Assembly (NCBI GenBank): GCA_036785375.1
Contig: JAWMAR010000060.1
Location: 4,960,001-5,024,000, forward strand
Length of the DNA stretch: 64,000 bases
Source: Leucoraja ocellata
Lineage: Eukaryota
Reading direction: 5' to 3'
Below are positions 24,201 to 49,241 of this stretch, piece by piece; the stretch's first letter is position 1, and each line of letters starts with the position of its first letter. The notes under the pieces were generated by a model, which searched no databases, was not told the origin of the DNA, and saw only the letters and a list, made by a program, of their open reading frames with translations. Made by a program: the position numbers and the translations under genes.

Positions 24201-26544
24201 ACACGTTACCTTAATCTGATATTACCACACTGATGGTGAAGCAAATGTGGCCAATGTGATTTTAGATCAACCATGGAGAAGCTTGATTATTATTATTTTT
24301 TGTTATGAAAACACTGTGCAACGTACACAGAATAGAATATTCAACGTCCTTCCATTAAGCGACGTGATTCATTATGATTTCAACAATTCATACATAGTGA
24401 GGAAAAACCTAGTAACCTAATTTCAAGGACACAACAATTCACAAACTAGCTGACAAGGATTTTTTAAAAATGGACGATGAACCTTTCATCAGAGCTTGTT
24501 ATATAATGAATAAAATATCAGAATAGGTAAATGCAGGTTAGTGGCCATGTGTTATCATGTTCATTTTATTAATGGCCTTTTCAACCAGATATATTGGCGT
24601 CGAAATAAATATGATAAACATACATTGTTTTTGTTTGCTCCTATTCGGACAGAGAGCGGCCATTGACAGGATTTTAATATTCAATTGTTCATGTTTTAAG
24701 GAACAACACATACATGTGATCCGCACACTATTTTACAAAATAACTTGGTTTATATTTACCATATGGAGAGCAAAACATTCCTGGAAATGGAGTATGCTGC
24801 GAAACAAGCAGAAAAGGGGAAACTACTCGTGTTCTGGCACAATCTGACACCCGTAAGCTTTTCCACTGACCTTTGCCTTGAACAGCAATAACTCACCACA
24901 TTAATGAACAATCAAAGGAAGCATTTGAAATACCTCAAAATAAAATCCATTCCGCTAAATGCAGCATCTCTCCCTGCTCGCATATATTCCTTCATGTGAA
25001 ATCCGGCGTTCAGAGTGCAATCTCTTTAGAAGAAAAAAGCTGGCTCTTAACAGAAAGTGGAAAAGCGTAATCACAGCCGAAGCCAGCCTGGGTCTCCGAT
25101 CCAAATGCCACAATAATGCGCTGTATTATGTGCTCACGTGGTCATACGTCAACTTAAATCCTTTTATTTGAATTTGGAGATAATTAAAGGAATGCCCTTT
25201 TCAGGCAAAGCCTAACTTTTTACCCAACAAATCCTAACAAGTTTCTTAAGATCAGTTTTGTTGGTATTGCAGAAGGTTGTTCCGTGACGATTCTTTGCAG
25301 GAAATCCTCGATAAGGTAAGTTGGGTCGTCTGTGTCTCATGGTGTGAAAGACCTCCATCCGGAGCCTGTAGGCTGAACTACTTGGAGCAGAAGAATATCA
25401 GTTTATAATGAATTAAAACTAAGGCCTGGAGTTTAAATCGATCTATGAGAAGCGAGCACTCCACATTTTCGACCAAAACAAGCAGGGAAGCCCCAGAGCG
25501 GTTAAGCTTCTATGCGACTCTTCCTTTTCAGGGCGTGCTTTTTAGAGCGCTATTGTATTGGACTTGCTTAACACCCACACGTTACACCAAGCTACTTATG
25601 GGAACTAGAAAAGGTTTGTATTTACCTGACAAAGACAAAGCAGTCACGGAAAGCTAAGGTGATGTTAGTCAGTGCAGCACAGGGTGAGGGGTGGACTTGA
25701 CAAGGATGTGATGGTACTGATTTTTCCACCATTTGTATCGTAAACCGTGCCCGTGGGGACCCTAATGCAAAATGTATGTTTAGATGCTTTAGGGCAATTG
25801 GATAACTCACATACATTTCTTGGCGTAAAAATAGTACAAATACTTTCAAGGCGAAACTTGTTTATTATTCACTGGGAACCTCTGAGGATGATTGAGCAAC
25901 TGCATTAAATTGATAGAATTGAAACTCGGGAGTAAAGGTTTATTCTTTAAGCTATTCATTGGTACACCATTCACTGAAAGTTTAGGAGCATAACTTATCT
26001 AAGGAAATATATTAGTACGCCTATCATTTTCCTGCGAGTGGAATTGTTAAAATACCTTTAATGCAAGAATTCGTAATTAATATATTTCTATTCTACGCAA
26101 GTAAATTAATTAATTTAAAATTGTTTGTAAAACGCTGCTTCCCTTTGTAAATGATATCCTGCACAAATAACCTTTATTATGTTGTTTATACTTTCTTAAC
26201 ATCCTTCCACTCCTACTATCTTGCTATTTCTTATTTCGAAAACACATTATTTAAATATACATTCTAATTTAATCCACACCGTGGATACTCTTAAAGGTCT
26301 ATTCTCGTCAGTGGATATTGTCTAAGGCCAAGATGGCTCTGAATGACACACTCTGAACTTTTTTTGGAAAAACTCGCATATAATTTAAGTTTTCTGGTGA
26401 ACGGATAAGAAAACCCGGTGATAGATTGATTAAAATTATGATCGTTATAGTTTTTTAAATGAAGTGCGTTGACTAATCTATTTTACTTTTAAACTCAGTA
26501 AACTTTTCAATGATTGCATATTCTCAAGATTCATAGTTCCAACC

Positions 26545-27108
26545 NNNNNNNNNNNNNNNNNNNNNNNNNNNNNNNNNNNNNNNNNNNNNNNNNNNNNNNN
26601 NNNNNNNNNNNNNNNNNNNNNNNNNNNNNNNNNNNNNNNNNNNNNNNNNNNNNNNNNNNNNNNNNNNNNNNNNNNNNNNNNNNNNNNNNNNNNNNNNNNN
26701 NNNNNNNNNNNNNNNNNNNNNNNNNNNNNNNNNNNNNNNNNNNNNNNNNNNNNNNNNNNNNNNNNNNNNNNNNNNNNNNNNNNNNNNNNNNNNNNNNNNN
26801 NNNNNNNNNNNNNNNNNNNNNNNNNNNNNNNNNNNNNNNNNNNNNNNNNNNNNNNNNNNNNNNNNNNNNNNNNNNNNNNNNNNNNNNNNNNNNNNNNNNN
26901 NNNNNNNNNNNNNNNNNNNNNNNNNNNNNNNNNNNNNNNNNNNNNNNNNNNNNNNNNNNNNNNNNNNNNNNNNNNNNNNNNNNNNNNNNNNNNNNNNNNN
27001 NNNNNNNNNNNNNNNNNNNNNNNNNNNNNNNNNNNNNNNNNNNNNNNNNNNNNNNNNNNNNNNNNNNNNNNNNNNNNNNNNNNNNNNNNNNNNNNNNNNN
27101 NNNNNNNN
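26545..27108. other. Assembly gap (564 N)
   Basis: Run of n. Confidence 1.
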
Positions 27109-30100
27109 GTATCTTTGGAGAAGGAAACTTCTGATATTTGGACATGGACATGGTCGCATATTCGCCCCCGGAAAAGTTAAAGCAATGCACTGGACAGAAG
27201 GAACCATCCAAGCACTGACTCCCCTTAAAGCCCAAGGCATTTTGTCAGATTTTCCTTTCCAGAGTCAGATTGGTTATCCATTTTAGGATTGTCCGAAACG
27301 ACTTCTAAAAATATATAATTCGGCCATAAATATTCGAGAACGTAACTTTTATCAACACTGGCATTATAAAGAAAGGAGAATGCGAATAAAGGGGCCTTCG
27401 GGCTTGACGATAAGCAATGACTTCCCTTTCCTTAGGTCAAGTTTTGAGCCATCAATTACTAACTAGACTGGAATTTATCCTCTGTGCAGATAGACAGAGC
27501 TACAAAGAAGTCGTATAGCTTACCTGACAATTCAGCCAAATCAAATCCAGCCTCAAAGGACAGATAAAGACTGCTGTGAAATTGATAATGTGCTTTACAG
27601 GGGGAAAGTTTCAACTGTAGATTCTACATTTTCCAAATTATCCGGCTGTTTTCAATATATTGCTGTGTATTTGCTCCAGGCACATTTCCTTTCTGCAGAC
27701 CTCTCTCAAACCAGAAAGGCAAGAGAATGAAGTTACTCCACAAATACTGATTCGGTGCCCTCAAACTGCTGAACTGTTTCCCTTATACGTTTCTGCAGCC
27801 GTCTGGGGTACTCGTTTTCTGTGAGATCTATGTATTAGAGAAGGCGAGAAAAAAACGACCAGCAAACAAGCAGGGCCAAGCCGACAGGAAAAAAACCTAT
27901 GGAATCCGTTCACGTGACTTAAAAATAATTGTTTGCAGAATCTGGATTAAATCTGATTATTAACCGCATACAATAAAGTTTTTGTGGCTCATTGTTAGGT
28001 TAGCATGCTTGCAAACTGGCATTACATTCCGAAACAGTTGATTTAGAAACAGCTGCACCAGTCTTGAGGAGAGCTCAGTCCCAATGTATTAGCAAGGTAA
28101 GGCCGAAGCCGTGCAACATACAGAGTGAATAGGGTTTGCACTTTAAACACCAAACACCGCCACACGTTTATGGAAGATAGGTTAAGTTTTTGTTTAAAAA
28201 GACAACCATTTAGACATTAATAACTAACATATGTAAAACTTCACAGAAAATAATTTATTGCAGTGAAATCGCATAAATAGGTTTTCCGTTCACTTCGCCC
28301 AAGAGCGAATAAAATAAATTATTTTGGACGAAAATATTAGACCTCACAACAGTAAATTAACAGGGATTCCACGAACATTTTCCAGACGTTTATCTTCATA
28401 ACATTGCGTGATGGTTGAATAATTTATAAAAAGCCAATAAACGAGGTCCAAATAAAACATCAATGTTTGGTTATATTTAATTGATGTAAACTTTGAAAGG
28501 AAGTATTCTAAAAATAAGGAGCTAAGGATCAGTAAAATCTTAGCTGCTTTCAGTTTACGAGTGGCATATAAGAAACTAATTTCTGCATGCGGGTGCAATT
28601 GACAAACCCATCACAACAAAGCATTAAGGCCGAGTAATTTATTGCACTCCTCATTCCACGCCATAAAACTACTCCAGTTATCAAACGACAGTTTAAACTA
28701 ACCAGAACATTTGTGCTTTCGTATCACTTGTAAACAAGCTGGCAATACTATTTACTCGATTTACTGCGGACGCAATATTGCCAATAACGCGATAGCTTTG
28801 AAGGAGTAAGCGGACAGACTGAAGACGCCTTTGCCGTTCTTTCCCAAATCAAATCCTTTCTTGTGGCTTCTTCTTACTGGCAGCCTCTTTTTAAAACAAG
28901 AACTTAAGCGTGATTTCCCATGTTACGTGCTGCTGAACATTTTATACTATTTATTGGATTTTCAATGTTCTATCTCGAGATGGCCGACAATGAATATTTC
29001 TCTTTAAACTTTGTTTTCTTTTGCCCGTGATAAAACTGCAAATCAAATCGGAAATGCAGCGAATGGAGATATTTACATGAAATAGAGAGATGAGGGAAAC
29101 GGAAATAGGCGGTGGTTTTTTGATTTCCTTGTGAGTCGGGTAATAATTAAACAAAGAAACATGGTAGTGTTTTCAAACCCTTTCACTCTATTTTGTTGAT
29201 TATAGCTGGGGAATCGCGTGTTAGCTTCAATAAATTACTACGTGGGATAAAACTTGCCTGCTAACTTTATAAACATAGACAGTAGGGAGGTTTACATTGG
29301 AGTAACATTGGCACCATATACAAATAAAGAGGTAGGTGCACAAAGCACTCTCATTTTATGAATCTTCTCGACAACAAATTAGCATTTAAAGGAACATAAC
29401 TCCCTTGCTCAATTGTAGTGAGAGTACCCTTCCCTACCAATGAATATGATGGACGCATAAGCGATATTTAATAATACTTAAAAGTTGTTTTCCTCGAAAT
29501 AACCAGAGTTATTGTGGTCTTGATTTTACTCTCGATTTTTAAAAATAAATCAAGTTCTATGTTTGTGGCTCTTGTGAATTCTTTGAGGTTGCTGTGAACG
29601 CCAAACAAAGGAAGTACCCAAGGCTTTTGTTCCCTCAACTAACCACCAAACTGACACTCTCAAATGGCTCCATGACTACCTTTTGCGACTGGGTAATACA
29701 TTTTAACATGGATGGAATCAGCTCTGTGGAGAGCACACAACCTCTCATCTTATAACGGAGTTGGAAAAATAAATGACATTTTCATTTAGTGTCCACTGAT
29801 TCCGATGAACTGTAGCACCAAACCACCTGTTACACTAAAACAAAATGAGTCTACCTGAAAGTAGACATGAAATTTCAAATACAATTAATTCTTTTTTTTT
29901 AACCTCTTAACTTCGAGCTCTAGACTTTCTCAATGCTCATTGGGGTTATTCTGAAGTTGCTTCTTGGATCGAGAGATAAAGATCTGAAAGAAGCATTTAT
30001 TGTTAAATTATACTATCGTGCATTAGTTGCCACATAGTAACTCATAATGTCGTCGCGCTGTTCTAATTTTAGGAGGTGGATCCAATTACAAAAGTGTTTT

Positions 30101-32563
30101 ATTGGAATGCCAGCCCGGAAGTTCAAGCATTGTACCAGCCGGTGTACTGTTGCAATTGTCTTGTTTTGATTGATCATAACGAATAGTAGTAATAATAAAA
30201 TGTACTTGACTGGAGCGATAAGACATTTAATTAAGTGCTATGTACTTTTACTAATTATCTTTTATTGTAAATATTAGGAGCAGTACTTAATTATGAGCAT
30301 AAGCAAATGCTCGTTTTATGAATGTTCTTTCGCCAGGTAACAACATAAGCACTAGAAAAATGGTGAAAATAAGTTATTTTTTTTCGCGATAACAATTACG
30401 TCCATATGAGTTCTGAGTTTATTCCAATACAGGTGGAACTCAATGAATAAAATATTTGAGCAATATGTAGGACTGAAAATATATCGACAAATATAATGAA
30501 GACAGGTGTTTCTGTGTAACTCTTTAGTCTTATGTGTATTGTCCGGTTCATAGTTACTAGATACAAATCAAGTATAGTCAAAATAAGTGCTGCAGTTTGT
30601 TTAGAATTACATATGTTAGTGCATTTACATGAGTACCATAACTCTGTCGTTTATTGTAAATCGCTCAAATTAATGAATCATAGAGGAATTTAGCTGATGC
30701 CTCTTCATTTCCAAACGCTCCTGCCTACAGTTGCCTTTCAGCCCTGCGCATGTAAGAGATGGTGATTTATTAACGACAGGGAAATTGAACAAAGCAGCAC
30801 AGCTACACCGTGGTATCCAGGCATACATACTGTGAACTAGAACATCATCATATGTGTTTGTATTTGTTGCAATTAATCATGAAAAAATCTAAAATATTAC
30901 TGACACGCGAGAGACTGACTAAACACCATCACAGACATGCCGTGATTTAAATCTGAATACTAAAGGGCGCTATTCATCACATTTATGACAGTTTAAAGAA
31001 ATAAAAAAATCTTAAAACATAAGCAAAATAAAAAACAAATCACAAAGACACTACTTACCACAATTCTGAGCTGATCTGTGCCACTTCACTTTCTCAGACA
31101 GATCTTCCAATTATAGACTTATTTTTTAAGGAAAGTTCATTTTCACATCAGACTGAAACAGATCTAGTGCGAATACTGACGACTACATATCTATTCCGGA
31201 CCGGCTGCATTAATTATTTAATGAGTCACGTGACAAGAGAGATTAAAATTTCAATACATACACGGAGGAGACGCGTGACCCTTTATCTTGGAGTGTGGTG
31301 TTTTTTTTTCTCTTTGCGTCCTTCTTACTTGAATCTTTATTGTTCGGGTTTTCTTTTAGTCTTTGGATACTCGCTGGTAAGTGATAATGCAAAAATGACT
31401 GGCCTGTGCTGATCCCAGATTTGACAGGTCCGCCATTGATGTCACCTACATTTTGAGCTGCCTCGGTCCAACATTCTTGGGCATTTCTTCAAACTGTCTT
31501 TATTGTCCACCTGACAGTTTGATATTGAAGCTCAGTGTTACAGTACCCCGCATACATAACCGTCACACGGAAGGCTAACTCTTTCATATGTGACTTTACA
31601 CCCCCCATAAGGCTGTTAAATTTGACACCGAATCGACCCTCACTAGCCGCAGTCGATATTTTATTATACCACCCAAATGTGTATTAGGTTTTATATTGTG
31701 TCTGTAGGTCTACAAACGCCTAGCATTATCATAGTGCATAAGACTAGTTATTTTAAGTGTGACAGGGAACATTATGCTGTTAAAAATAGTCGATGATCCC
31801 AATAAAATTAACGATTTGTGGCAATTCTGCTTCCTATATCAGTTTAGCTTTAATCAAATCATATTATTGTCAAATGTTGTGCATTTGGCGATTATGCACT
31901 TCCACATATTTCGAATGAAGAAATGTTTTGGAATAATTTTAATCAATTACCAACAACTCTCTAAAATGTCAGCTGCAAAAATGTGTGCAAATATGGTATC
32001 AAGAAAGTAAGAAAGTTAGCAGAAAAACATGTTTCAGTTATTCTCTTCAATAATCAGAACAATGCAGTGCCCCGTGGGTGAATTATCTCTCATTACTCGT
32101 GAAGGATGGAATCCACCCTCTTAAGTCATTAACTACAAAAATGTTCCACACTAAACCATTCAAAACAAGCATAGTTTCTCATCACGTGCAATCTTCCGAG
32201 CTTGTACATAAATCATGGACGATTTTTCTTTACGCAAGCACACATTGCACATCTAAAAAAGTTAAGACATATGCAGTTTATCGATGTGCGTGTGTATGTA
32301 TGTGAGTGCATATGTGGCTGTGAGAGAATGTGCAGGAGTACGGCCGGTTGTGTGTAATATTCAATATCGCTGCACACCTAAATGTAGTTTTAATACATAT
32401 TGCTTACATTTTTGACATTTTAACTTGGATAACGAGCTGTATTATTTTGGCTCCTACCTATAGGCATAGGAAATAGTGGAAAGAGCATTGTCCATCTCTT
32501 AAAGGTCAAGGGTTTGAGGGGGTCAGTCTGCAACGCTAAAAACGGCTAATCGGTCAGAAAAGT

Positions 32564-32580
32564 TGTCCTCTGGGTGAACT
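32564..32580 (-). promoter_or_regulatory. DR5 RARE 3' of HoxA4
   Basis: AGTTCA-cccag-AGGACA; same type and position as the paralog-group-4 3' neural enhancer RAREs. Confidence 0.8.
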
Positions 32581-32854
32581 CACTCTGGTTGCCCAGCCGT
32601 TGACAAACAATGCAACGTTTTATTACAAAAGACCGTTCCTTGTACAATAAAGCAAAAACATCAAAAGAAAAAGATGCAAACGGGGTTTCGTGTGCTCGTT
32701 GCAACAAAAGTTTGGTCATGTAAAGGACAGGGTATTATCAACTTACGCTATCCAAAACTATTTTTACGTTGAAAATTATTGCTCGCCTTTGAAAACATGC
32801 GTTTTATAATATCCTCTTGTAATAAACGTTGCCCAGCTAAAGCACAACTGCGGT

Positions 32855-32875
32855 GGGGGGGGGGGGGGGGGGGGG
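32855..32875 (+). repeat. Poly-G (21 nt)
   Basis: Read directly. Confidence 0.9.
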
Positions 32876-35091
32876 ATTCATGGTGTGTGCCGAGATGGCC
32901 ACATTTTATTCAAGAGATCCAATGTGTTCATACACTCTTCTAAAAGATCACCCTTCAGACTTGCTGTTGAAGTATACAAAGAAGTATTTATTGAATGAAG
33001 TGATTAATGATTCTGGGTAAAATCTGTTATTTTCAATCTGTTTAAAATTCCTTTTTACAGATAAGCAAGCACAGTTGTCTAAAGACTGAAGTTTCTCATC
33101 GCCTTTTCTGTGCCTTTTTATATTCGTTTGTCGTGGTCGTAAACCTCATACAAGCCATATTTTATAACGTGTATGTTTAATGTAAACGTTGTTTATTTGT
33201 AATTCCTTAAACGCAAAGTATCTTCACAGATTACGGTTATATGTACAGGTTTAAAAAGAAAGTGAAGTGTCGAGTCGAGTTTATTTTTTTTCTTCGCAAA
33301 GGTTCTGATTACTTGCAGGAAATATTTGCATAACTACAGAGTATTTCAGTTTCTAGACAAAATAATTTTGGGAAGAAATTACTGCATCATGCTTAATTAC
33401 ATTTCCCTCACCACTCATGGGGTGGATTGAGTATATTGAGATCATTATTTCTTATTATCTGCAGAATTTGCAGAGAAAAATAAAAGCAAGGAATTAATCT
33501 TTCCAGCGTGAATTTTAAACAATTGCTACTCAAAGCCATGTATCAAAATCGACATCAGGATGTTGAAGAATGCATCATTTGTTTCACAAAAATACTGCGG
33601 TTAGCCTGCTTTTCAGGAGCCATGATATCTGTGGGTTTCTTTCAAGCAGATAATATAATGGGACAGATTAGATTATCATAACGTTAGAAATCGTCAACTA
33701 GGACTTTATATTTACATAATTGTTGCTTAATTATTTAGCCCCTTTCAACAAGATGAACAAAATTGTGTCCCAGCAAATATTCGCGTATTTACCCTGGCAA
33801 TTTAAGTTTCCCGGTCCCAGAGAATGAGTGTTGCTGTAAGCATTGATATCGCATTTTAAACGTAACATGTCTCAGGCCCATGGATGCAAAGTCCATCTAA
33901 AACTAATTTCACGTGATTACAGTCTCATTCAGGATCAGAAATACAACAATTAGGGTTATAAAAGGACATTCGCCACCGTGTAGATGACTTATTATTTGAT
34001 CGCTTCACATTTTACTGCATTATTTACGACCTAGTGACGTAGAACTTGATGTGCAGAGGCTGTAGAAAGATGAATTATAGATCTGGACTATAATTTATCC
34101 CCTTTCGCTGAGTTATTCTTCCGAATCACACCCTGTTTTTCCTTTTTTTTTTAATCCGCATTGCTAGGGTAGGAATGTGACCATTTTTTTTGTTAATCAA
34201 TGAAATGTATGGTCATGTTTTAGTGTAGAAGGAAATGTTAGTTTTGGTGTGTTTATTCCATCCTGACTGCAAGTAAATTGCACACGTAAGAACTGAGATG
34301 GTCCACGAATTAACATTTTATTTAAAGCCTTGGGCTTTGTTTTTACACAGTAAATGGTGTCTTCAATTTTAGCAACATTTTGGCACTGCACATAGCACAC
34401 TGAAATATCCACAGAAAATACATAAATCTTACCAATGATTTGTACAGTTTCGTCACATTTGGACTGTACCAAAACTGTTAAATATACAACAACTCGTCTG
34501 AAATCTCTGAATAAGCTCTTTTCACATTCGTACACTGATATCAGTACCACAACTATATAGAGGATACAGATTTAAAATAAAGAAAACACCTTAAATAACG
34601 CTGGCGACATAATTTATTTCCTATATATGTAGCATCTGAACAGTTTATTCGCTCTAAAAAAACATTTCCACATCCACAAATATTGCTGCCTTTCTCATTT
34701 TCTACAAACATGTTTATCCTTATATTCTCACAAATATTTCAACAGACTACACTAGTTGAAATGATGACGCTTACAGTTCTTCACAATATCTATTATTCAC
34801 GGTCCTTTGCTCTTTTTTGCATTGAATATCATGGTAGAAGCCATTTTGACAGAACTTCGCATGTGGGGGTAATGAAGGATACTGAATGTACCCAATCAAA
34901 CAGAAAACATTTTAAAAGTCTGCTGAGAATGGGTTAACACAATATAAATGCTTGACCTCATGAGGTTAGTAGCATATCTCATGGAAGAAAATTTTCCTTG
35001 CAAGAAATCCTTCCCCATTCAAGTCAATTATGTGGCAAACACATTTTGGTCCAAACTATGTTGTGGGAGAGGGGTTGGAGACGCGAAGCAG

Positions 35092-35417
35092 CTATAGGCT
35101 TGATGAATTTGGTGCTGAACCATCTGGCTGTGGGCCCTGGGAGGATACTTGTGTTTGCTGGCTTGCAGAAGATGATGAGCTAGCAGAACGCATCTTAGTG
35201 TTAGGCAGTTTGTGATCTTTCTTCCATTTCATCCTTCTGTTCTGAAACCAGATCTTCACCTGGCGTTCAGACAGGCAAAGAGTGTGTGCAATCTCAATGC
35301 GTCGACGCCTGGTTAGGTAACGGTTAAAATGGAACTCCTTCTCCAGCTCTAATACTTGTTGTCTCGTGTAAGCAGTTCGAGACCGTTTGGGCTCTCCTCC
35401 AGTGTAATTGGGGTTCA
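35092..35417 (-). CDS. HOXA4: Homeobox protein Hox-A4, coding exon 2
   Basis: Acceptor ttcag|[79 protein letters not shown]. Joined CDS 744 nt = 247 aa. Confidence 0.97.
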
Positions 35418-35619
35418 CTGAACAAAAAAAAGTAACCAAACATAAATACAGAGACAAGCACGAATCTGACAATGGGTTTAAATGTACGTGAAGGAAGGTT
35501 ATAAAAGTCAGAGTTTTTTGTCAAGTGTTCTGACAACGGAGAACAATCTACTGCAATAAAATGGCTCTGGGTATTTAGGTTAGAAAAGCATCAAAGACAC
35601 ATGGCCAGAAGCGGGATCC

Positions 35620-35685
35620 AGGGCAATCAAATTTATGGGCTCTGTAATTACCGACCTAACTGTTAGGTGATCGTAAATCTCATGA
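35620..35685. promoter_or_regulatory. HB1-type homeodomain site cluster in the HoxA4 intron
   Basis: aatttatggg, gtaattac and atcgtaaa within 50 nt; a known conserved element of PG4 introns. Confidence 0.7.
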
Positions 35686-35764
35686 AAGGGCTAGTTACAG
35701 AAAGGGTTCCGCACATCCGATTTCAAGTGAATTTTAATTGTTTCAGTTAGCTTTAGTTACTTAC

Positions 35765-36182
35765 CGTTGGTAACGTGAATTTTCTTCATCCACGGATAAA
35801 CTATGGGCTCTTTGCTGAGAGTACCCTTCTGTACAGTGGCATTTTTCGCGTTTTGGCTACACAAAGCTGGTGTGGCTACTGGGACCACTTCACAAAGCTG
35901 ATTCTGTCTCGGTATGTGATTTTGGACGCTAGCCTGCGACTGGATATGACCTCTTTGCGACATGTCTTGGTTGCCAGTGCCTTGGACATTGTTGAAGCTG
36001 TAGGTCGGCTCTGGGTAGTTTGATTGTGGGTATAGTGCCTCATGATGGAATCCAGTGTCCCGCGGCCGCTCGTAGTATTCAGGAGATTGGCTTGGTATGT
36101 AGTTATTTTGAGAATATTCCTCACAAGGTGGAAATTTTGGCTCAACGTAGTTGGAGTTTATCAAAAACGAACTCATGGTCAT
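35765..36182 (-). CDS. HOXA4: Homeobox protein Hox-A4, coding exon 1
   Basis: MTMSSFLINSNYVEPKFPPCEEYSQ start, EPIVYPWMKKIHV hexapeptide, donor AACG|GTAAG, phase 1. Confidence 0.97.
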
Positions 36183-39086
36183 TAATTTCTGAAGTGCAAA
36201 ATACTAATTTTTCTCGCGTTGTCGTTTTTCTGTTCCATAAAACCCTCCTACTTGCTGTCAAGTGTATAAAGTTAGCTGTTCATGTGATGTCGGCAGCCAA
36301 TGGGAAGAGTGGCTGTGGGTCCCGGATAAGGAAATACACCAATGATAAATGCATGGAGTCCAGTGAAAAAATCCATATTATCATTCAAAATCTCGTTTCC
36401 CTGAAATTACATTGCCGCATAAAAAGAAAAAAAGAACTGAAATAGTCAGGAAAAGAAGTACTTGTAAAATAACTTAAAATAAACAATGATGTTGCGATAT
36501 TTTATCGAAACAGATATTTGTAAAATATGTTGTGACGCGGAAAATATCACAAGATAACATCTACAGCGGTCTGATAATGTCTGGAATAGTTCATTCTTTT
36601 CCGAAAATGCGGCGATATAAACAATTTTCGCCCATTTATCGGCGGGACATTAAGGGGATTTGAGAATCAATAATGCCATTAAAGGCATTCTGAGATTCAG
36701 TCCTTGAAAGAAGAATTCCCATAAAATCCTGAAAATAGTATACTTATTATAATAACACATGAGGCTTTTCGAGTATCATAATGCAGAACCTATTGTAAAA
36801 TTACATTAACTAAATGTTCGATAACCCTAGCGAACGTCGGAAGATGTTGTTATGTTTACTTAATGCATATTACAAAACGTTATGTAATCAATTGGTATTC
36901 CTACATGGCTTAATAAAATTTGTTAAAACAAACTGTCAGTTTAATGTTCGATTGTTTTTTAAAGAAAAATGATTTAATTGTGTTGCGTGGAATAAAAATG
37001 ACATGAAACGAACATTGTTATTGGAAATGCCCAGTAAACGTGGATAGTGATTGCATTACTTTTATATATATTTAAAAAAAGGGAATGCATTCAGCACAAC
37101 TGTTCAGTAAAGCAATGAATTTGAATGAATCTTTATTGCAGGGAATTTAGTAAACTTTGTCAATTTTGAACATTTGAATTTTGAAATAAAGTTGCTTTTT
37201 TTTAATCACCCTGTTTAGCTAATAGCTAAAAAAACTGAATACCAGGTGATTCTATCATTTCATGTCACCTCTGCATGAAAACAAAATGCAAACAAAATGC
37301 TATTTTAATATTTGTTACCTGTTATAGAATTGGATTAAAACACCAGTAATATTTGATAACACTTTCTAATGTTTACTTCCTTTTTTTTAAAGGCAGTAAT
37401 AACTTGCGCAAAATTGTACGAACTAATTAACTTTTTGGATTGGTTAACCTGATTAAAATCCTACCATGCTTATATTCGAATTCAGTTCTATCCCAAATAA
37501 ACACAATAAGTAGTTGCCATAACAGAAAAGTGCCAAGTTGGTGCATTGCGCGTTACAGTTCCAAAGTAATCATATGAAATATGCTTTCTGGACTGTAATA
37601 AAAGTGATTCATAACATTCGTTCTTGTCAATAAAAGAAGCGTTAAACTCTCAATTTTATGTGTTGGACGATACACTGCATCCAGACACATTAGGGCACAT
37701 TTGATGAGAGAGAATATTTCCCAACCACTGGAACACGTAGTTAGTAGAGTACATTTACCAACCCACCCTGTTTTGCAGCGCAGTGTAATCGTCCATTAGA
37801 ACGCGTTCAATTAAACACCAAGCTGTAAAATCAATTGACTCTCGATGTAATTAATACATGCTTATTTTCACTGCTCACTATTCAAAGAAGCTATGTGTGG
37901 GACAATTTAAATAGGATCATTAATATTTTGGGCGATTTTATTTTACATACCACTAGAATAACTTAATTAAATGTGTTTATTTAAACAGTGTATAATATTG
38001 TTTGAACATTTTACGAAATAAATTTGTCGAAATTATTTTCATAAAATCTTAGATTCTGCCAAACAAACCCTTTATTCTGACAAACTTCCTAAAATAATTG
38101 TGCCCACCCCTCACCTTCTCTTAGGCAGACTTAGGGTGCATCGCTGTGCACCGACCAAGTAACTTGCCAGTAAATAAAGCAGTCCTGTAATTAGCTTGGG
38201 CCATGTCTATATTTACGCTCTTTGTCGAAAAATAGGGAATTAGAGGCTCATCGTATAAACACAGAACGTTTCTGAAGACGTCCAAATGCAGGTCAGTCGC
38301 CAGAGCATTTTTTCATAATAAACAGAGATGGAGCCAAGACCCCCAAGTGTTACATCGCCTGCTTGCACGTTTGACATTTTTACTGCAAGCCTAGATTTAC
38401 AGCCATTTTAAAAAGAAAGGAAAAGTTAACGCTTTTTACGACATTTCCAAATCATGGGCATTTTAAGAACTTGCATCAAATTTTAATTTTATAAAGAGTC
38501 GTGGTGAAGAAATCCGTTTCACATTAAAGAGAATCCAAGTTCTGAGGTACTGAATTGAAGATTTGTTTCGCGGTTTAATAAATCAGAAATTACACTTTAC
38601 CAGCCTTAACTCTTCCGAACAGCAAATCAGTAGTTTAGTTGATTAAGGGTGTAATTTTTTCTTCATTGACCGTCCGAATCCATCTGCACTGCTCGGGGTT
38701 TATCAAATAGATTGTACCATGCCAAAATGTACTTGTTTCCCATCTCTATCTGGGACATATGGTCAAAACAGCCGGAGTCCGAGTCAAAAACAAAATAAAA
38801 CAAATAAAATTGTACATTTCGAAGATACATCTTCGAGCAAGCTTGCACCGCATCCCACAGAGCTGCACAACTGTGCATTTATTGGACTTCGACCCGGGAA
38901 ACAAAACAAAAGGTTTTATTCAATGAAATGGGATTTCGTAAGGGGTACGCGAAGCTAAGTTTGGAAGTGACCGAAAAGTGACACCGTGTGCATTTTGTTT
39001 CTTATTAATCTTATACATTGACAGTCTTTGTTAAGTAACAAGGCGTGCCATTCGTGAGGCGACATTTTCATATTTGTTAGACGCGG

Positions 39087-39103
39087 TGACCTGAATTTCA
39101 CCT
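39087..39103 (-). promoter_or_regulatory. DR5 RARE 5' of HoxA4
   Basis: AGGTGA-aattc-AGGTCA, 2.9 kb upstream of the HoxA4 ATG; matches the type and position of the known Hoxa4 5' RARE. Confidence 0.85.
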
Positions 39104-42100
39104 CGGCCTTGGACTTAGCTATTTCTAAAAGGCCTATAGTGCTCATTCAAATACCAGGGTGTTTTGCCCAGGTCATTACCTTTGTGGAGGGGAGAAAGTA
39201 GCCAAAATGCATGGGCTCTACACTGCCTATATAGTCTATAGAGACTATTCGATAACCGTCTTTAAACATTTGTAAATATAACTTCGAGTGAAAAAATCAA
39301 TAGATCTGTAAATATCTGTTTGATGATCAGAGAAAAAAACAAATCGGGACCATACCGACTAATATTTAACAACATCCGTGATCGGATAATTTGCTTTTAG
39401 GAATTTGAAATTAATTTAAACTTTCAAAAAAAGTTGCACAAAGCGCTGTATTGTTTCACTAATACATCTGCATTTGATTTCAAATCCTCTTATTTGTGCT
39501 CCCATCCCTATGCTAAGTGTTCCAAATTTAATCCTCAACATTTTATTTGAGAATGTCATCCTTCTTAAAGAAACCTATTTTAGGCAAAAATCGCTTTTAA
39601 TCTATAACATTCAGTTTTAAAATTGTGACACGTAGACCTTTTTTCCCCTCAAATTCACCGGCCGAGTGTTCCCAATCGATTCTATTGCCGTTTAGGAATA
39701 TTTTTTTAATTTCTTACAAACTATTCTAGTAACAAGTGTCAACATTGCAAAACGAAATTATTCGTTTGAAATAAGTTTCCGATCATTTTTTAAGGGGGTA
39801 TAAAGGTCAATTTATGCATGATGGATTTCCTTCTTTTCTTCATTTCTATGTGTTGCACTATAGCATGCCGTTCTCCTCGTTCACCAAAACATGCGACCTC
39901 TCTATACGTTTATCACTTACTCTATCAGCAGCTTTATTCCTATTTGTCCATACATACATAAAGTGAGTGTATGTTGAGATCTGTATTGTAAATGTATATT
40001 ATGTGTTTTAAGAGGAATGCGATCGGGTGGGGTGGGGGAAGAAGAAGGTTAGATGGACTCCGAGTAAAGATGGCTTCTTTACCTACTGAATAATGCATTT
40101 ATGTTCGTACCGCATATGAAATCGTTCGTCTTTTTGCAAACTCTCGGTATACGGGTTATGCCATTCGGCCTGCTCGTAACCAACATTATTTTCGTTTATC
40201 TCTGTAATTTCTGTTATTTCTTTAAACTAACCCATTACCTGTGTACCAATGATTTTCGAAAGCACGCATTCTCCAGTTCCAAGGTAGAACTGTAATGTTG
40301 TTTTGCGAAATACATTGTCTCCAGTTGCTTGTAACTTGCTACCGTGTAAATCCAAAGATCTAACAAACATATATGTGAAAGCTTTATGGTTTCTAACAAT
40401 CTTTATATAAAATGGACTTGATCTTTATGTTTAATATGACGAAACGGCAACAGTGCAACTAACTGTGACCAGACATTCGGTATATCTAAAATTAATGCCC
40501 TAGACAACATTTGTCCTTCTCTGATTCAATTCTGTACTTTGAACACTGCAAGCACAGTCAATATTAATCTGCAACCCATATTTAGCATTAGCCACGAATC
40601 TATAATGGTTCCAGTGCTGACCCATTTGTAAATCATTGCTATTATATATTTAAACGATAAAGAAAACAAGAGATAGTCCTCGTCATATACTTCTTCAAAT
40701 AAATAAAAGTATTCAAGGATGTAAATAAGATTTAAACAACATTATATGTGTCGTTTTGTCTTTAAAGGCTACACGTCTAACCAAGTGAGCAAAACAGAAC
40801 TAAATGAAGTATTGCATAGGCCACATCCCTATATAATTTTATGATTTAAACTAGATGTCATTTCGAACATATGTACCTGTGAAGTCTTCATTAATTCTAA
40901 ATTAGCAGCAGTTGTTCTACATTTCTTTTTTTGCAAGAAGGTTTCTCTGAATCTAAATCTAATTGATGTAAATCTTTGCCTTGGGGTAGATTGTGTACGC
41001 TGCTGTATCGTGGAATTCAACAGACAGACTGCATCTTAACCCCTAAAATGTTTTTCAGGCAGAAAAATGAGAATCTAAATAAAACAATTGTATTTTTTTC
41101 GACAAAAGTCGTTTGGTTTTTGTACAGTTACTGAAGATTTACCTGATACATTTACACAGCAGATAGAAAATATACCGTAGTCGATTATTCAATATGAAAT
41201 ACAATGTGTCTCGATCATGAAAAGAACATTTTTTTCTTTCCTTTCGTCAGTAATTGAGGTCGCTCAGTCGCTAGGGTTCACCTGGAGTCCATAGCATGAT
41301 ACACGGGTAACATCAAAGCAATTTTATCTTTTGTGCTGATAGTCAAGATCGTGCTATAACATTGGACATCAAACTCTGTCCTGAGCAGATGATTGCAAGT
41401 CGTGCAAAACGTAAACTTTTGACCCTCAACTTTTTGACCTATAGTTGTACCGCCCTGCCAACCACCCGTACAGGGGAGCCTTTTTCAAAGGCACCATTGG
41501 GGACTAAATAATATCCCTTTTCGTTCACTATTTTCATGATGTACGGCTAATTTCAAGTTTGGGAAGGCTAAAAGAACCCCCACACCACCACCCCTCCCCC
41601 TCTGCCCTTCACCCAACCCTCTTCCCACCCTCCTGCTCCCCCATAAGCGAAGCGCTCCTTTAATTTCAAAAATGGCATGAACCTCAACAGTCTGCAAGCT
41701 GTTCATTCAAGTGCTCCTTTATTTTGTTGGATATTCCAAACTGGGTAAGTTTTTTTATTGCAGCGACCAGCCGATGTAATTATAGATAGCACAGCGAAAA
41801 AAAACAACTCAATTTAGCGTGAGTTACTTTAGCATATTCGTTTTTTTTCCCTTTACACAGATAGAACAATGGATACGTGAGCTCTTCAGCCCATGCTAAA
41901 ACTGACTGTGAACTTGGTCTAAAGCGAGCTCTGCTGGTGAGTCGCAGAGTGTGCAGATACAATTTCCTTCAATTCCTTCTTTTTCCTTTCTGGAAACATA
42001 TTCTCTGTGATTTAAGGAACGAAAATCCCCCACACCATCAAAACATTTCCAATCCAAATTGTATATTGTAGCAAAAGAGGTGCGCATTTTTATGTCCCTT

Positions 42101-42389
42101 GGCAAGACTGAGGTTCGTTCGTTCTGAAGATAAAACAAAATACAACTACGAATTATCTTAAGTTCAACTACAGACATTAAATATCACTGAGAAGAAATAA
42201 TAAACGTTGTTACGTTTTTTTTTCTGTGATTCTAAACTGTCTCCAAAATACTGTTTCAATTTACCCTTTCCTGCCTCCGCGCGTTAACAAATGCAAACGC
42301 ATAAACACAAAGTAATTCAAATTGCTATTTTTATCGTTGGGCAACCATATCTTAAGGTGTGCATGAGAAATCATTTGTACTCTCCCATA

Positions 42390-42421
42390 CCCCCCCCCCC
42401 CCCCCCCCCCCCCCTCCCCCC
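42390..42421 (+). repeat. Poly-C tract
   Basis: C25-T-C6 read directly. Confidence 0.9.
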
Positions 42422-43996
42422 ACACACACTTTTATTTTATGATGGACAAATCTCTGGTAATAAAATAAAAGACAATACCGGTTTATTTAGTGAGTCCACC
42501 TATGTTTCCCCCTTTCCCACTGCAGCAGGATACAATGAAATGTACACAATTCTTCAGGCGGTTTATTATATCTACTCTACCAGCGAACACAGCAGTTATT
42601 AATGAAAGTATTTCAGGGGCTTAACAAGGTCTCTGTTCTGCAAGGTCATACTGCAGTCAAAACTTTACGGGTGAAAACATCATGGCAGCGTTTTGAATAA
42701 CAATCTATTTCTTAAGATCACTATTTGTCTCGACTGAAATACAGTTAATACCACGAACCTTCGTATCAAGGGACTTCATACAAATAAAGCAATAAAATTT
42801 GAATACGACTCAAGCCCTGAGAGCATATGTGTGTTACTTTCTATTAATATCCTTAATTTTAAGAATTTAGATATTTCATCTAACCATATCGTTAAAAGTC
42901 AAACATGTAAACTAAATACAACAGAAGAAGGAAATCAGTCGGCAAAACACTGATTCAGCTTGCTGGGTAATCTGACATTATGTGTTAGGTTAACACGTGG
43001 ATAATATTCTCACACCTACATTTATATGTATTTACCCTGTGGGTAAGCTGTGTGGTAACGCATAATGTTCACAAACATGAATATTACCACTTACTATGTG
43101 TTATTTTGTGCTGTAATGAATGGCAAACCAATTATCTTACTTTCTCATAAATAGGAAATCTCAATACTGCTAGACGCCCTTTCCACCCCCCAACTACCAA
43201 AAATCCACTGAAGGGTGGGGCCCAGAAATGTGTCGCATAATATAAAGCTGCATTCGTTTCATACATAACATTTAAATTGCACCATTAAATTGCCTGTACC
43301 TTGCTCTAGATTTGAGAAAGAATTTCATGTATACAGTTTAGGGGAAAACTTCTATTCTATCCACAGATAAACTAGCATACATTTCAATTGAAGAACGTGG
43401 TGCCCTTTCGATGCCCTTAGCACAGACGAAACGTAAGCACGTCGCATTCCAGATTTTATGGCGTCCATCTCTTTAGCACACACAACCTTTCATTTGTTTT
43501 ACATTTATATTTGTACCGCGATAAGAGAATTGTTGCCTGAGAGGTACAGAGGCTGCTTTTAATTTTAACCATCGATTAATGAGATGGCGTCTTAAAGGGT
43601 AAATATATGATACGATAAAGCTCTGAATTAAGTTCCTCAAATGAAACTTAACCAATAGCTTATTTAAGAAACTAAAATATTTTTGCAGTTATGTCCTATT
43701 TAGACATTGCAAAGCAGCTTTTTTAAGGGAAATTTGATTCACTATAATTTCAGAATAAATATTCTGTTCTGACGGAAATTTAATTTATTGATAATTTATG
43801 TTTGACTCACTGAACAGATTGCCTTTGTACTGCGTGTATGTCTTTGGCACAAGGGTCTTCTTGAAGAACAACTTCGTAAAAGACGCCCCCAATAATGAAC
43901 CCGTGTTTCTAAAAAAAAATATCGTTCACGTAAAATGGCAGCCTCAAACCATAGAGAGAAATCATCTGAAAGGCAAACACACACAATTCTCCTCAG

Positions 43997-44341
43997 NNNN
44001 NNNNNNNNNNNNNNNNNNNNNNNNNNNNNNNNNNNNNNNNNNNNNNNNNNNNNNNNNNNNNNNNNNNNNNNNNNNNNNNNNNNNNNNNNNNNNNNNNNNN
44101 NNNNNNNNNNNNNNNNNNNNNNNNNNNNNNNNNNNNNNNNNNNNNNNNNNNNNNNNNNNNNNNNNNNNNNNNNNNNNNNNNNNNNNNNNNNNNNNNNNNN
44201 NNNNNNNNNNNNNNNNNNNNNNNNNNNNNNNNNNNNNNNNNNNNNNNNNNNNNNNNNNNNNNNNNNNNNNNNNNNNNNNNNNNNNNNNNNNNNNNNNNNN
44301 NNNNNNNNNNNNNNNNNNNNNNNNNNNNNNNNNNNNNNNNN
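43997..44341. other. Assembly gap (345 N)
   Basis: Run of n. Confidence 1.
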
Positions 44342-46324
44342 CCATAGTTTAGTGAAAATGGAAGGAAGGCTGTGGAGGAAAGCTACCTCCTTGATGCTAC
44401 CTCTTTTAGGAAAGAACCATAAACCATTCTGTGCCATTGGTCCCCACAGAATATCTGCATTGCACAACTGTGAGCGGTTACCAATTTGGGCAGCATATAT
44501 ATAATCTTTTAGCCCTTCATTATGCTCCTCCGCCTTGTTTGCCCAGTTTGGAGACTCTGGTTTTTTAATGAAATGCTTTCTTAAGTTCCGCATATGATAT
44601 CAAATGCACAAACCTTTGGGTATTGTTTGAAACGAAATAATATATTAACACTGATGTTTAGGAATTAGTTCAAGTAAATCAGTAATAACTGTTACAAGTA
44701 ACAAGTAATCTTGGTCTGAATGCCACTCTAGCAGCGAGTGAAACTAAACATCGTTTCGTCTTGTTATAAGAGGAATTTAAGTGATCCGGACAGATGATAT
44801 ATTAAACTGTCATATTTAAATGTAAACTAATACAAAGGAAATTACAACAGATTGACGCGAATGACATGGCCGATCCGGAACTGCTGTACTGATACAGGGG
44901 CCGATTTCCTTTATTTACTGTTGGATTTTTATAGCACATCGTAAAACGGACCTAATTACAGTGGAATGTTTTGAGTGGAAGTTTTGGAGGGTAATTGCTT
45001 TCAACCTCTTTAATCGCGTAGCCGCCTACCAACTCCACTTCATGCCCTATAGTCTGCCTTAGACATTTTAAATGAAATTTGAATATCCATAGAAGGTAAT
45101 AAATTGTGTTCTCAATTGGGGAAACAATTTTCGTAGTTCAGAAATAGTCTCTTCAAGAAGCTTTAGATTATACTTGGAAGTCTCCTACGTACTAGACTAG
45201 CGGAAGCTTCAAAGAATGAAAAATCGGTCATAAAGTTTATGGTTGGTCAGCCACTACTGTGGGAAACCCGCAATTCACCAACAACAATGTTGATGTTACA
45301 ATAGTTACAGTTAAAGTTGCAGCAGTCCTTCCTTTGGCTGCATTTCACTATTTTAAACAATTAATGTGTTACATTCGCACACATGCCTCATCTTAGGTCG
45401 TAAATAAGTTTGTTTCCCCAAATCACACCTTTAGTTATATTACGTTTTCTAATTCCTCAAAGGAATGATGATTGTCGTCATAAAAGTTCAATTTCGTGAA
45501 GGGGGTTGGGGAAGAGAATGGTTTGCCTGAATGTGTGAAAGAATCATGTAGTACACTTTGTGTACCTTAATCAGACCGTGTTTGCCGACTGAGTTTATAT
45601 TGGAACTCTTTAAGCAACACATATCCTGCTCATTAAAGTATCAATGGCCCGCACCTTCCCAAATTGCAGGACAATTAATACATTTGAAACATAAACTTAG
45701 TAATAACACCAATAGGAGACTTGTCACAACAACAGGATAACACTTCCCTCAAGCAAATCACAGATAAGAAAATAAAATAGCACAGTTATCTGAGCTTGCG
45801 GGATAGAAATAGGAATATTCTGTCCACGGTATTGAGGGACTTAACAACACCAATAGCTTTTGGTAAGAAATAATCGTGTCTTTCAAAAACCTGTTACACA
45901 CATTTTTATTAATGAAACCCAAACGCCTCTCTCAAAATTATTTCCTTGCCTAATCTGTCCTTTTTATTTACTGCCCAGTTTGTAAAGTAGAAGCTTCATT
46001 TGAACGCAGAAAGAAATGAATCGGTAGTTTACCCAGGCTCATTTCTGCCTCAATGCACTCTGGGTGCTACTTAAGGCCTGTTCTACTGGGCCAAATTTCT
46101 TTGCGAACTGTAATGATAATATTTCAACAAAAATTACCTTGTGTTGCAAGAAAATACAACTTTCCTGTACACTGGAGTGGTGGAGCTGTGGATAGTCCTC
46201 TGAACAAGAAGATTAGCCATTTGAGTGGCTTGTCTGCACACGCAATCTGCAAAGGAGCCAAATGAAGTCCAGCGTCAGTGAGATTATATGTTATGTAGAA
46301 TATACTGTTGGTTGTCAACTCCCC

Positions 46325-46510
46325 AAAACCATAAAACTTACTTTAATGACACCACGTGATTTTTTATAGCCAGTGAGGCTATCAGTCTGTGCTATGGATG
46401 ATTTTACGATCTAATTCATAGACAAAACCCTATTCATTTGGCACCCAAATGTCATATAGCCGGAACTGAGGTGTATAAAAGTTTACTGTTTATAACTTTA
46501 AAGGACAAGC
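46325..46510. promoter_or_regulatory. Motif-dense element 3' of HoxA5 (Cdx/Hox sites, E-box, TATA)
   Basis: CCATAAAA near 46329, CACGTG at 46353-46358, TTTTACGA near 46402, GGCACCCAAAT at 46440-46450, TATAAAA at 46474-46480. Confidence 0.6.
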
Positions 46511-47944
46511 ACTCACTCAGCAGAAAGGGTGAAAGTGCTGATCTCCTTGCTGTCAGGAGCTAAGTGGTGACTTTTCTGCCCTGCTTTGTCGCGGTAAGTA
46601 AAGTTAACTCTGTAAAGTGAAAATACCTGTTGGAAAAGGTTTACGCTACACTTTAGCAGGGAGTTGAGAGATCGTGACTATCGCCTACCTTCGGGACATA
46701 AGTGTTTGAAATGCTTCAGGGTACAATTTTTCCTCAGACCCACACTATACAGTTTCAGAGAAATCGGGTCTATCAAAAGGGTTTGTTCAAATGCAAGAAC
46801 AGTAAGAGCAGCAACAAAGAAGTAGACGTTGAGCAGTACAGTTGAGCAAACGGTGCGCAAATATCAGTGCGCAAGAAATGGGATTCAAGAGGCGGACGTT
46901 TTCACTTCGAAATGCGTAAAAAACACCATACTACAATTTAGCACCATGTGTAAATATTCAGTGTACTAATTTCTACCGAATTCCGCCATTTGCACTAATA
47001 AGAAAATTTGAAATGCATTGCTTAAAGACCCGCCTTTATAAGTTTGCGCAGCTTCAATACCTACGCTAAACCAATCTGCAGACTTTTCATCCAGAGAAAT
47101 GGGGCAAAGTTATAAAAAATAGGTCAAACATGTACTTTTCTTAGGAGGTTTGGACAAAAACTATGTTAAACGTAATTAGTAGAAATATTTTAATGCACAA
47201 GACAACAAAGGCAAGATAAATACTTATTTGGGAGGCTAAAGAGCAGGAAAGTTACTATAGAAACTTTATTTTAACTTCCAGTCAGTTTTAAAAACAAATA
47301 CAAAAGCTCATCACTAATTTCTTAAACTGCCAGTCTTTTAGGCTTTATATTTATCCTTTGTCACAAAAAACATACACCGACGCTGCGCTAAGAGCCACTT
47401 ATTGGAATTCGTGCAAAGTCATACAAAGGCACAGCATAGACATACAGTTCAAAGTCGCAATACCCTTCACAAAATTCACTGCTCACTAATAACACAGAAT
47501 AGGTAGCATTTCAGTGATTTAACACCACGATATCCAATACAGAGGACGATGGTCTGAAATTAAATACGTATTGCAAGCTTGGAGCTATTTTGACATTTAG
47601 CAACACTAATACATACATACACTTTTTTTTGCAGAGTGCAACACATAATTACATTTTACTGGACGATTTTATACAGTTACTTCAAGTAATACCGCTTGTA
47701 TTAATATAAATAAGTTAAACAGCTATAATTCACAAGGCTATCCTATTCCTAGACAATATACTGTAAGCAATGACTTGTACAGGCAACAGTACGACCAGAA
47801 AGCAGACTAACGATGCAAAGATTGGAATACGGCAATATGGAAATGCTTTTCTTCATAGAAGTAACACGGGAAAAAGAGTTTTGGAAGTCAGTACTGTATT
47901 GACATTATGCTAATTGGTTAGCTACTGCCCAGTGCTTCCATTGA

Positions 47945-48304
<360 letters not shown>

Positions 48305-48664
48305 CTACCACCCGCCTATCTACATTAACCTTTATGCTCCTTGTGCGCCTTCATAGTAAAATGACTTTAGAAACTTAACTGGTACAAAATGTTGAAGTCT
48401 CCACTTGGCCGAACCTGTCCCTATTATCAACCACACCTTTTTCAACCTAACAATTCTTATTTACCCATACCATAGTGACACGTAACTGGATACCTTCCTA
48501 ATATTACCCCCCCCCCCCCCCCCTCACGCAAATGGTTACAAATATAATTACAACTTATAAAATATGATCCTTATAGAAATCTCAGCGAATATATTTAGCG
48601 TTTTGATTTACAGTGTGCAAAGTAATTTGAGATTCCACTAATGCAAAGATGAAAGGTGGTTTAC

Positions 48665-49241
48665 CGTGACTTATGTGCAGTTTTCGCATCCAGGGGTAAA
48701 TCTGAGGCTGCTGCTGTGCTGTGCCTTGTCCGTTCTGTGAACTTGGAGGGTCGCTGCTTGCCGGGGTGTCATCCTCAGTACCAGGCGACGTGCCAACCCC
48801 ATCTCTACTGATTTGACTGCTGCTGCTGCTGGAATTTGAGGAGGTAGTTGGGCTTGCTATGGAGTTTTTGATTCCGGGGTGGTTGTCACTGGCAGGCGGA
48901 CTGACCACGGCGGAGCAGGGCAGAGGGTCAGGTGAAGGAGATTGAGTGGACGTGGCAGGTTGGTTGTACCTGGTGTCTGCTCCTGCTTCTGGTCCTGCTG
49001 CTGCTGTTGTTGCTCCTGCAGGGTAGCTTCGAGATCTTTCACTGGCATTAAAGTGGTTAGATGCTGGACGGCTAATGCTGAGATCCATCCCATTGTAACC
49101 GTAGCCGTACCTGCTGGAATGCATCGTTGCAGAATCCCTGTATTGCTCGCTCACCGAGCTATGATCTCCATAATTATGTAACTGGTAGTCCGGGCCATTT
49201 GGATAGCGACCGCAGAATGAGTTTACAAAGTAAGAGCTCAT
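48665..49241 (-). CDS. HOXA5: Homeobox protein Hox-A5, coding exon 1
   Basis: [21 protein letters not shown] start, [15 protein letters not shown] hexapeptide, donor CACG|GTAA, phase 1. Confidence 0.97.

Follow-up and report, generated by a model that had tools for sequence, protein, structure and literature searches.

The window analysed here is a stretch of 64,000 nt of Leucoraja ocellata DNA, in which open frames for HoxA1 to HoxA7 all lie on the minus strand and mark a HoxA cluster. Exon 1 of HoxA5 shares 95% identity with a ray protein cluster, 89% with chimaera, and at most 73% with the 118 further proteins among the 120 matches listed, which places the window in a cartilaginous fish. 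The interval under study, HoxA3 to HoxA5, contains two N gaps (26545-27108 and 43997-44341). The hexamer CACGTG occurs 15 times across the whole window. The sole Rfam match in the window is HOTAIRM1_2 (7123-7365, plus strand), which rules out a structured RNA family at the boxes described below. Coding landmarks and an internal comparator are as follows.

4648..4944, plus strand: HoxA1 promoter E-box (4648) and strong plus-strand donor 4939 (11.5 bits), internal comparator
17207..17784, minus strand: first coding exon of HoxA3; acceptor 17784 (8.7), and an E-box of its own (17747) accompanied by CCAAT
35092..36185, minus strand: HoxA4 coding exons, between box 31227 and box 46353
47945..49241, minus strand: HoxA5 coding exons; candidate poly(A) signals 47189 and 47265

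The HoxA3 exon 17207..17784 is expected to be the landing exon of upstream leaders, and a stretch of it is similar by eye to a primer for the zebrafish hoxb3a long leader.

Intergenic E-boxes and their splice donors

A preliminary description of the window had singled out four intergenic CACGTG boxes (25135, 27911, 31227 and 46353), each with a minus-strand splice donor on its left and a plus-strand donor on its right. All four boxes and all eight donors were found again at the same coordinates and on the same strands. They are listed here with the exons and the promoter discussed below; ‘sense’ refers to the HoxA genes.

24896, minus strand: sense donor (8.9 bits) that ends candidate exon 24897..25046; a second donor lies at 24870 (8.4)
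24897..25046, minus strand: candidate HoxA3 leader exon, with donor 24896 and acceptors 25024 and 25046 (8.8 each)
25135..25140, no strand: E-box 1, CACGTG, HoxA3-HoxA4 intergenic, without a CCAAT partner
25313..25321, plus strand: antisense donor, intron start 25316, 12.8 bits, the best plus-strand donor of the window
27518..27526, minus strand: sense donor, intron start 27523, 11.2 bits
27911..27916, no strand: E-box 2, TCACGTGAC, USF-type
28094..28102, plus strand: antisense donor, intron start 28097, 11.4 bits
31053..31061, minus strand: sense donor, intron start 31058, 9.7 bits
31225..31234, no strand: E-box 3, palindrome GTCACGTGAC, with a CDX/Hox-like TTTAATGA 10 nt leftward
31374..31382, plus strand: antisense donor, intron start 31377, 10.7 bits
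46137, minus strand: sense donor, 9.3 bits, that ends candidate exon 46138..46247
46138..46247, minus strand: candidate distal HoxA3 leader exon of 110 nt, with acceptor 46247 (10.4) and donor 46137 (9.3)
46313..46456, plus strand: putative HOXA-AS3/HOXB-AS3-type promoter, with CCATAAA at 46329, TTTAATGA at 46342 and E-box 4 at 46353
46591..46599, plus strand: antisense donor, intron start 46594, 9.4 bits

Donor scores come from a rough matrix built on round-number frequencies rather than from MaxEntScan. On this scale the eight box-flanking donors reach 8.9-12.8 bits, and the seven best-scoring HoxA coding-exon donors 5.4-10.2 bits. Among the plus-strand donors of the window, 25316 ranks 1st, 28097 4th, 31377 5th and 46594 17th, and the first three of these are situated 150-186 nt to the right of their boxes. 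The four boxes share no similarity past the CACGTG core (12-13 nt at most), so a duplicated repeat unit was ruled out. Separately, the HoxA1 box and donor, which lie upstream of the HOTAIRM1 conserved region (7123-7365), repeat the layout of an E-box with an antisense donor.

E-boxes are familiar elements of Hox promoters. They are needed for the promoter activity of mouse Hoxa3, a5, a7, a9 and a11 (bioRxiv 10.1101/2022.02.10.479744), and mutating them in Hoxa3 and Hoxa5 lowers promoter activity (PMC9456764, Akirtava et al. 2022). bHLH factors including USF1/2 bind the E-boxes of mouse Hox promoters (bioRxiv 10.1101/2022.02.10.479744, PMC13060157, PMC2193192). In the window, an E-box-like site with a CCAAT 9-11 nt away lies upstream of HoxA1, A2, A3, A4 and A7, and an E-box plus CCAAT module also occurs at 57440. 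The flanks of boxes 17747 and 49400 resemble by eye the primers around the mutated mouse Hoxa3 and Hoxa5 E-boxes (PMC9456764 supplement 3). The four intergenic boxes share the CACGTG(AC) core with the USF1/2-bound Hoxa promoter E-boxes, which come with a CAAT box (PMC9456764; for HOXB4, PMC2193192). Unlike those, none of the four has a CCAAT near it (0/4), and they are 7-29 kb away from the HoxA3 coding exon. CCAAT as a switch of direction was ruled out, as HoxA1 has a CCAAT together with a strong antisense donor.

A probable HOXA-AS3-type promoter at box 46353

Degani et al. (2021; PMC8330917) placed the starts of HOXA-AS3 and HOXB-AS3 500-900 nt past the 3′ end of Hox5. Their promoters are paralogous with 73-80% homology, carry tandem CDX sites and are similar down to elephant shark, and S3 Fig of that paper aligns them with 5′ splice sites marked. 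When positions 46313-46378 are set against opossum HOXB-AS3 (PMC8330917 supplement), 57 of 66 are identical without gaps, as counted by eye. The match takes in CCATAAA and the CACGTGA core. The likeness carries on, with small gaps, as far as position 46451, whose GTCATA is the beginning of the human HOXB-AS3 model. CDX sites are in tandem, one per strand: one is CCATAAA at 46329, and the second, on the other strand, is one base off the published CCATTAAA. A candidate antisense start near 46451 would lie some 750 nt away from the putative poly(A) signals of HoxA5 (47189 and 47265) and fits a position 500-900 nt beyond the Hox5 3′ end and antisense to Hox5.

Because the opossum HOXB-AS3 match includes the E-box as well as CDX, we assign 46353 to a HOXA-AS3-type promoter, and judged by its sequence it is very probably the HOXA-AS3 promoter orthologue. 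It has in common with the HOXA-AS3/HOXB-AS3 promoters the location 3′ of Hox5, the CDX sites, the antisense orientation and the sequence match with its E-box. Box 46353 is in this respect a new-species example of an already published ancient element. The available text of PMC8330917 mentions neither the E-box nor a divergent HoxA3 leader, and its identification of HOXA-AS3 RNA covers human, mouse, opossum and Xenopus but no cartilaginous fish. The conserved E-box in these promoters is a candidate bHLH input beside CDX. Donor 46594 may end a HoxA-AS3 first exon of about 140 nt. We also consider it somewhat more likely than not that box 46353 fires both ways using donors 46137 and 46594. A human HOXA3 isoform begins head to head with HOXA-AS3.

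Candidate sense-side HoxA3 leader exons

The preliminary description had each box make a sense first exon. Donor 31058 agrees with this: the best acceptor between it and its box scores 0.7, none being usable, and it is the best first-exon candidate of the sense donors. Donors 24896 and 46137 speak against it, with good acceptors 110-150 nt upstream, so their exons may be internal or hybrid rather than pure first exons. At donor 27523, the weak acceptor 27828 (5.7) would yield a 305-nt exon. The acceptor score used here rates the true HoxA1 and HoxA2 acceptors at only about 6.

Two other vertebrates are known to make long Hox3 leaders from these intervals. Zebrafish hoxb3a splv2 starts 3′ of hoxb5a, has a single exon in the interval from hoxb4a to hoxb5a and two between hoxb4a and hoxb3a, and is a long-leader form with more posterior expression (PMC2148072). 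Mouse Hoxa3 has a distal exon, located between Hoxa4 and Hoxa5, that transcripts starting at an upstream promoter carry as an internal exon (PMC2868907), and candidate exon 46138..46247 fits this exon, orthology being argued from position. Like hoxb3a splv2 and mouse Hoxa3 Y11717/AK051552, the skate candidates would place a single non-coding exon in the Hox4-Hox5 interval and further ones between Hox3 and Hox4, joined by splicing to the coding exon of Hox3. The likeness is one of position, and the available texts of PMC2148072 and PMC2868907 describe no divergent antisense partners for their leader isoforms.

The internal use of the interval's exons in these zebrafish and mouse transcripts (PMC2148072, PMC2868907) favors a reading in which only 46353 works in two directions, while the minus donors of the other three would end ordinary HoxA3 leader exons that are internal, or alternative first exons that fire one way, and their plus-strand counterparts would be unused chance motifs or belong to internal exons in an antisense RNA starting elsewhere. 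The acceptors ahead of minus donors 24896 and 46137 suit it, as do those upstream of plus donors 28097 (8.7, 7.6) and 31377 (9.0, 7.6) and the plus side alone falling short of significance (p = 0.06). Such acceptors are common, however, since one of at least 8 is present within 40-320 nt at 29% of positions, and of the window's five strongest plus-strand donors, three lie 150-186 nt to the right of these boxes. We regard this one-way reading as the strongest competitor, though an unlikely one.

Boxes 25135, 27911 and 31227 between HoxA3 and HoxA4

Boxes 25135, 27911 and 31227 occupy the region that in mammals holds HoxA3 leader exons and HOXA-AS2, a positional match only. The antisense RNA HOXA-AS2 maps between A3 and A4; the review PMC8293171 lists orthologues of it in primates only, and PMC1831499 gives ‘A AS2’ a homologue in mouse. 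An antisense RNA in A3-A4 is what the boxes would share with HOXA-AS2, and the window holds the HOTAIRM1 conserved region of the HOXA1/HOTAIRM1 pair; the link of the three boxes to HOXA-AS2 is by position. Going by the within-window statistic given below, the three boxes most likely mark alternative promoters or exons of the HoxA3 leader, with antisense partners positioned like HOXA-AS2. The narrower claim that at least two of them fire both ways with these donors we put a little short of even.

Searches for outside material returned little on these boxes. A metagenome scan with HoxA4 exon 1 gave 34 loci with no match at the four boxes, and outside Hox exons and proximal promoters these loci gave three weak matches only, of 40-51 nt. 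The intergenic sequence is absent from the supplements of PMC2080641 and PMC4470032. A sequencing-run search with 27200-37100 returned no RNA run among the 24 listed; presumed-RNA contigs contained 0.08-0.39 of the words and were not counted as evidence. Our literature search, in which subscription papers were little covered, found no account of E-box promoters firing both ways in the HoxA3-HoxA4 interval of cartilaginous fish, and the available texts of PMC8334257, PMC8892498 and PMC8172242 have nothing on the four boxes. Shark Hox non-coding DNA evolves slowly, so conservation among sharks alone proves little (PMC2746220).

Enrichment of outward-facing donor pairs

Divergent donors (at least 8 bits, within 400 nt) flank 5 of 15 CACGTG boxes compared with 4.8% of positions (p = 5e-4), and the convergent arrangement of the same strength and distance is seen at 0 of 15 compared with 4.9%. 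Box 49400, the fifth paired one, represents the HoxA5 promoter; its pairing depends solely on a coding-exon motif and on another motif 51 nt away. In a stricter test donors closer than 60 nt were left out, and the same four boxes alone of the 15 stayed paired. With 4/15 boxes then paired, the background rate is 4.5% among non-coding CpG sites (n = 1391; p = 0.004) and 5.7% among GC-matched ones (n = 664; p = 0.009), and circular shifting gave p = 0.004 in 20,000 shifts. CpG-island or GC bias behind the pairing was ruled out, the matched null still giving p = 0.009. Between A3 and A5, half of the eight CACGTG are paired against a background of 5.4% (p = 5e-4), and the remaining four are unpaired.

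The proposed enrichment holds at strict thresholds (p = 0.004-0.009) and is lost at lax ones: the effect is absent at 6 bits or more (p = 0.075-0.39). The donor thresholds were chosen after the donors had been seen. With a U1-pairing energy score in place of the matrix, p ranges from 0.0009 to 0.31 over 16 settings, and box 46353 drops out at −7 kcal/mol or stricter. Single sides are weak (plus donors 6/15, p = 0.06; other side 6/15, p = 0.025), and inward-facing minus donors are also raised (5/15, p = 0.075). Other E-box hexamers are rarely paired (1/37, 0/14, 0/26, 0/18 and 8/80). On both sides a donor comes ahead of a poly(A) signal at 3 of 15 boxes, compared with 1.7% of 2320 positions. 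Among the four, these are 25135, 31227 and 46353; box 27911 fails on the plus strand, where a poly(A)-signal hexamer, roughly 60 nt away, precedes antisense donor 28097. As an out-of-sample set we used 30 of the 34 metagenome Hox-bearing loci (4 under 1500 nt dropped), which are non-orthologous. None of their 31 CACGTG is paired, an uninformative count given that only 0.7 was expected at a 2.2% background, so the pairing is at least not general to Hox-region E-boxes.

Could the A3-A4 pattern at three boxes be chance combined with selection by the reader? CACGTG ranks 1 of 2549 hexamers for pairing, about what the best of so many tests would give, and its rank fails correction for that number; moreover, significance vanishes at lax thresholds, and 10 of the 15 divergent-donor regions have no CACGTG. 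Against this, CACGTG is the motif that was expected beforehand at Hox promoters, its rank of 1 among 64 palindromes survives correction (about 0.03), it is found in 5/15 divergent-donor regions and 0/11 convergent ones, and one of the four boxes, 46353, was identified independently. We find chance improbable here, and take the layout of donors around CACGTG to be non-random on moderate evidence.

Discussion

The reading that we prefer, at about even odds, is that the boxes are Hox-type promoter E-boxes of the bHLH-ZIP (USF/MAX) class serving non-coding start sites within the cluster. In the mechanism that goes with it, the motifs, the enrichment and the homology of 46353 are observed, while initiation, the use of every donor and factor binding are what we infer. 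A bHLH-ZIP dimer on the palindromic box, together with CDX at 46353, would open a start region that fires both ways. Leftward (sense) transcription would produce long HoxA3 leader isoforms spliced to acceptor 17784, the minus donors ending first exons if the local promoter fires and internal exons if transcription starts further upstream. These long leaders may go with more posterior expression, as for hoxb3a splv2. Rightward transcription would produce spliced antisense lncRNAs, namely a CDX-driven HoxA-AS3 orthologue from 46353 and HOXA-AS2-position RNAs from some of 25135, 27911 and 31227. On each side a donor 150-390 nt out would recruit U1, protect the nascent RNA and favor elongation, an effect discussed for divergent promoters of developmental regulators (PMC3882496). 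The antisense products may act in cis, as human-cell HOXA-AS3 does on HOXA5-7 (PMC8330917).

Least probable, and quite unlikely, is that the boxes are enhancer cores (E-box plus Hox/CDX sites) giving bidirectional, partly spliced enhancer RNAs and no HoxA3 mRNA isoforms; the lack of CCAAT at all four, the CDX/Hox-like sites adjoining 31227 and 46353, the shared Hoxa4-Hoxa5 regulatory sequences (PMC2868907) and the existence of spliced enhancer lincRNAs (PMC7035876) lean that way, but the element paralogous to 46353 has been documented as a promoter of an lncRNA (PMC8330917), and zebrafish and mouse are both known to make long Hox3 leaders from the intervals in question (PMC2148072, PMC2868907).

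As for the chain of bidirectional promoters put forward in the preliminary description, the link at 46353 is well supported as a promoter by HOXA-AS3/HOXB-AS3 promoter homology, and the other three have the within-window statistic behind them. The suggested ancestral sense/antisense system divides along the same line, its 46353 element being already published (PMC8330917). That the jawed-vertebrate ancestor already had, between HoxA3 and HoxA5, four E-box promoters in a chain, all lacking CCAAT and each flanked by U1 sites on both sides, giving nested HoxA3 leaders and matching spliced antisense RNAs, is a doubtful proposition. Nested leaders and antisense units have been proposed as one reason for Hox clustering (PMC1831499).

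One of the four elements is already in the literature, so it would take confirmation of the remaining three to make the gain more than incremental. The finding amounts to real, largely known Hox biology plus a testable lead that HOXA-AS2-like promoters are ancient. The predicted junctions in slowly evolving cartilaginous fish offer a cheap test of whether mammals added the HOXA-AS2 region and the multiple HoxA3 promoters or these are ancestral. If the ancestral chain of four promoters is true, RNAs in the HOXA-AS2 position would be as old as HOXA-AS3, and the combination of an E-box and an outward donor pair would provide a sequence signature by which any Hox cluster could be screened for such promoters.

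Candidate splice sites and leader exons

Beyond the donors that flank the intergenic E-boxes (CACGTG), three very strong minus-strand donors have no CACGTG nearby, and acceptor-like sites precede three strong plus-strand donors.

Splice-site features
20215, minus strand: donor, 12.1 bits
21052, minus strand: donor, 11.1 bits
38114, minus strand: donor, 10.6 bits
25300-25315, plus strand: acceptor-like site before donor 25316
31359-31376, plus strand: acceptor-like site before donor 31377
4923-4938, plus strand: acceptor-like site before donor 4939

The minus-strand donors are candidates for further leader exons of HoxA3 or HoxA4. The acceptor-like sites, lying 16-18 nt ahead of their donors with scores of 7.3-8.9, could have arisen by chance or could delimit micro-exons.

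At the HoxA7 promoter box (61759-61990), two strong plus-strand donors were found, 61912 (9.8 bits) and 61981 (10.1 bits), which may belong to an upstream antisense first exon.

Promoter-type elements and other motifs

At 57400-57465, CCAAT lies 11 nt from an E-box variant and is accompanied by a TATA-like run. No coding gene adjoins this element, which is separated from the stop codon of HoxA7 by about 2.6 kb; its location fits that of the distal Hoxa5 promoter D2 of mouse, placed 2.3 kb beyond Hoxa7 (PMC2868907).

Other regulatory motifs
20970, minus strand: DR5-type retinoic-acid response element match, 5′ of HoxA3
39103, minus strand: DR5-type retinoic-acid response element match, 5′ of HoxA4
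9748-9770: CCAAT with E-box variant, HoxA2 intron

Among the loci retrieved from metagenomes with HoxA4 exon 1, L003 (9955-14307 of its contig) holds a gene of Hox4 type whose intron spans 4 kb; the non-coding sequence of L003 showed no similarity to the window except one 51-nt match.

HoxA1 side

The E-box of the HoxA1 promoter is accompanied by a strong plus-strand donor at 4939 (4648-4944), and HOTAIRM1 conserved region 2 lies downstream of it at 7123-7365. The two segments likely represent a spliced HOTAIRM1 orthologue in a cartilaginous fish.
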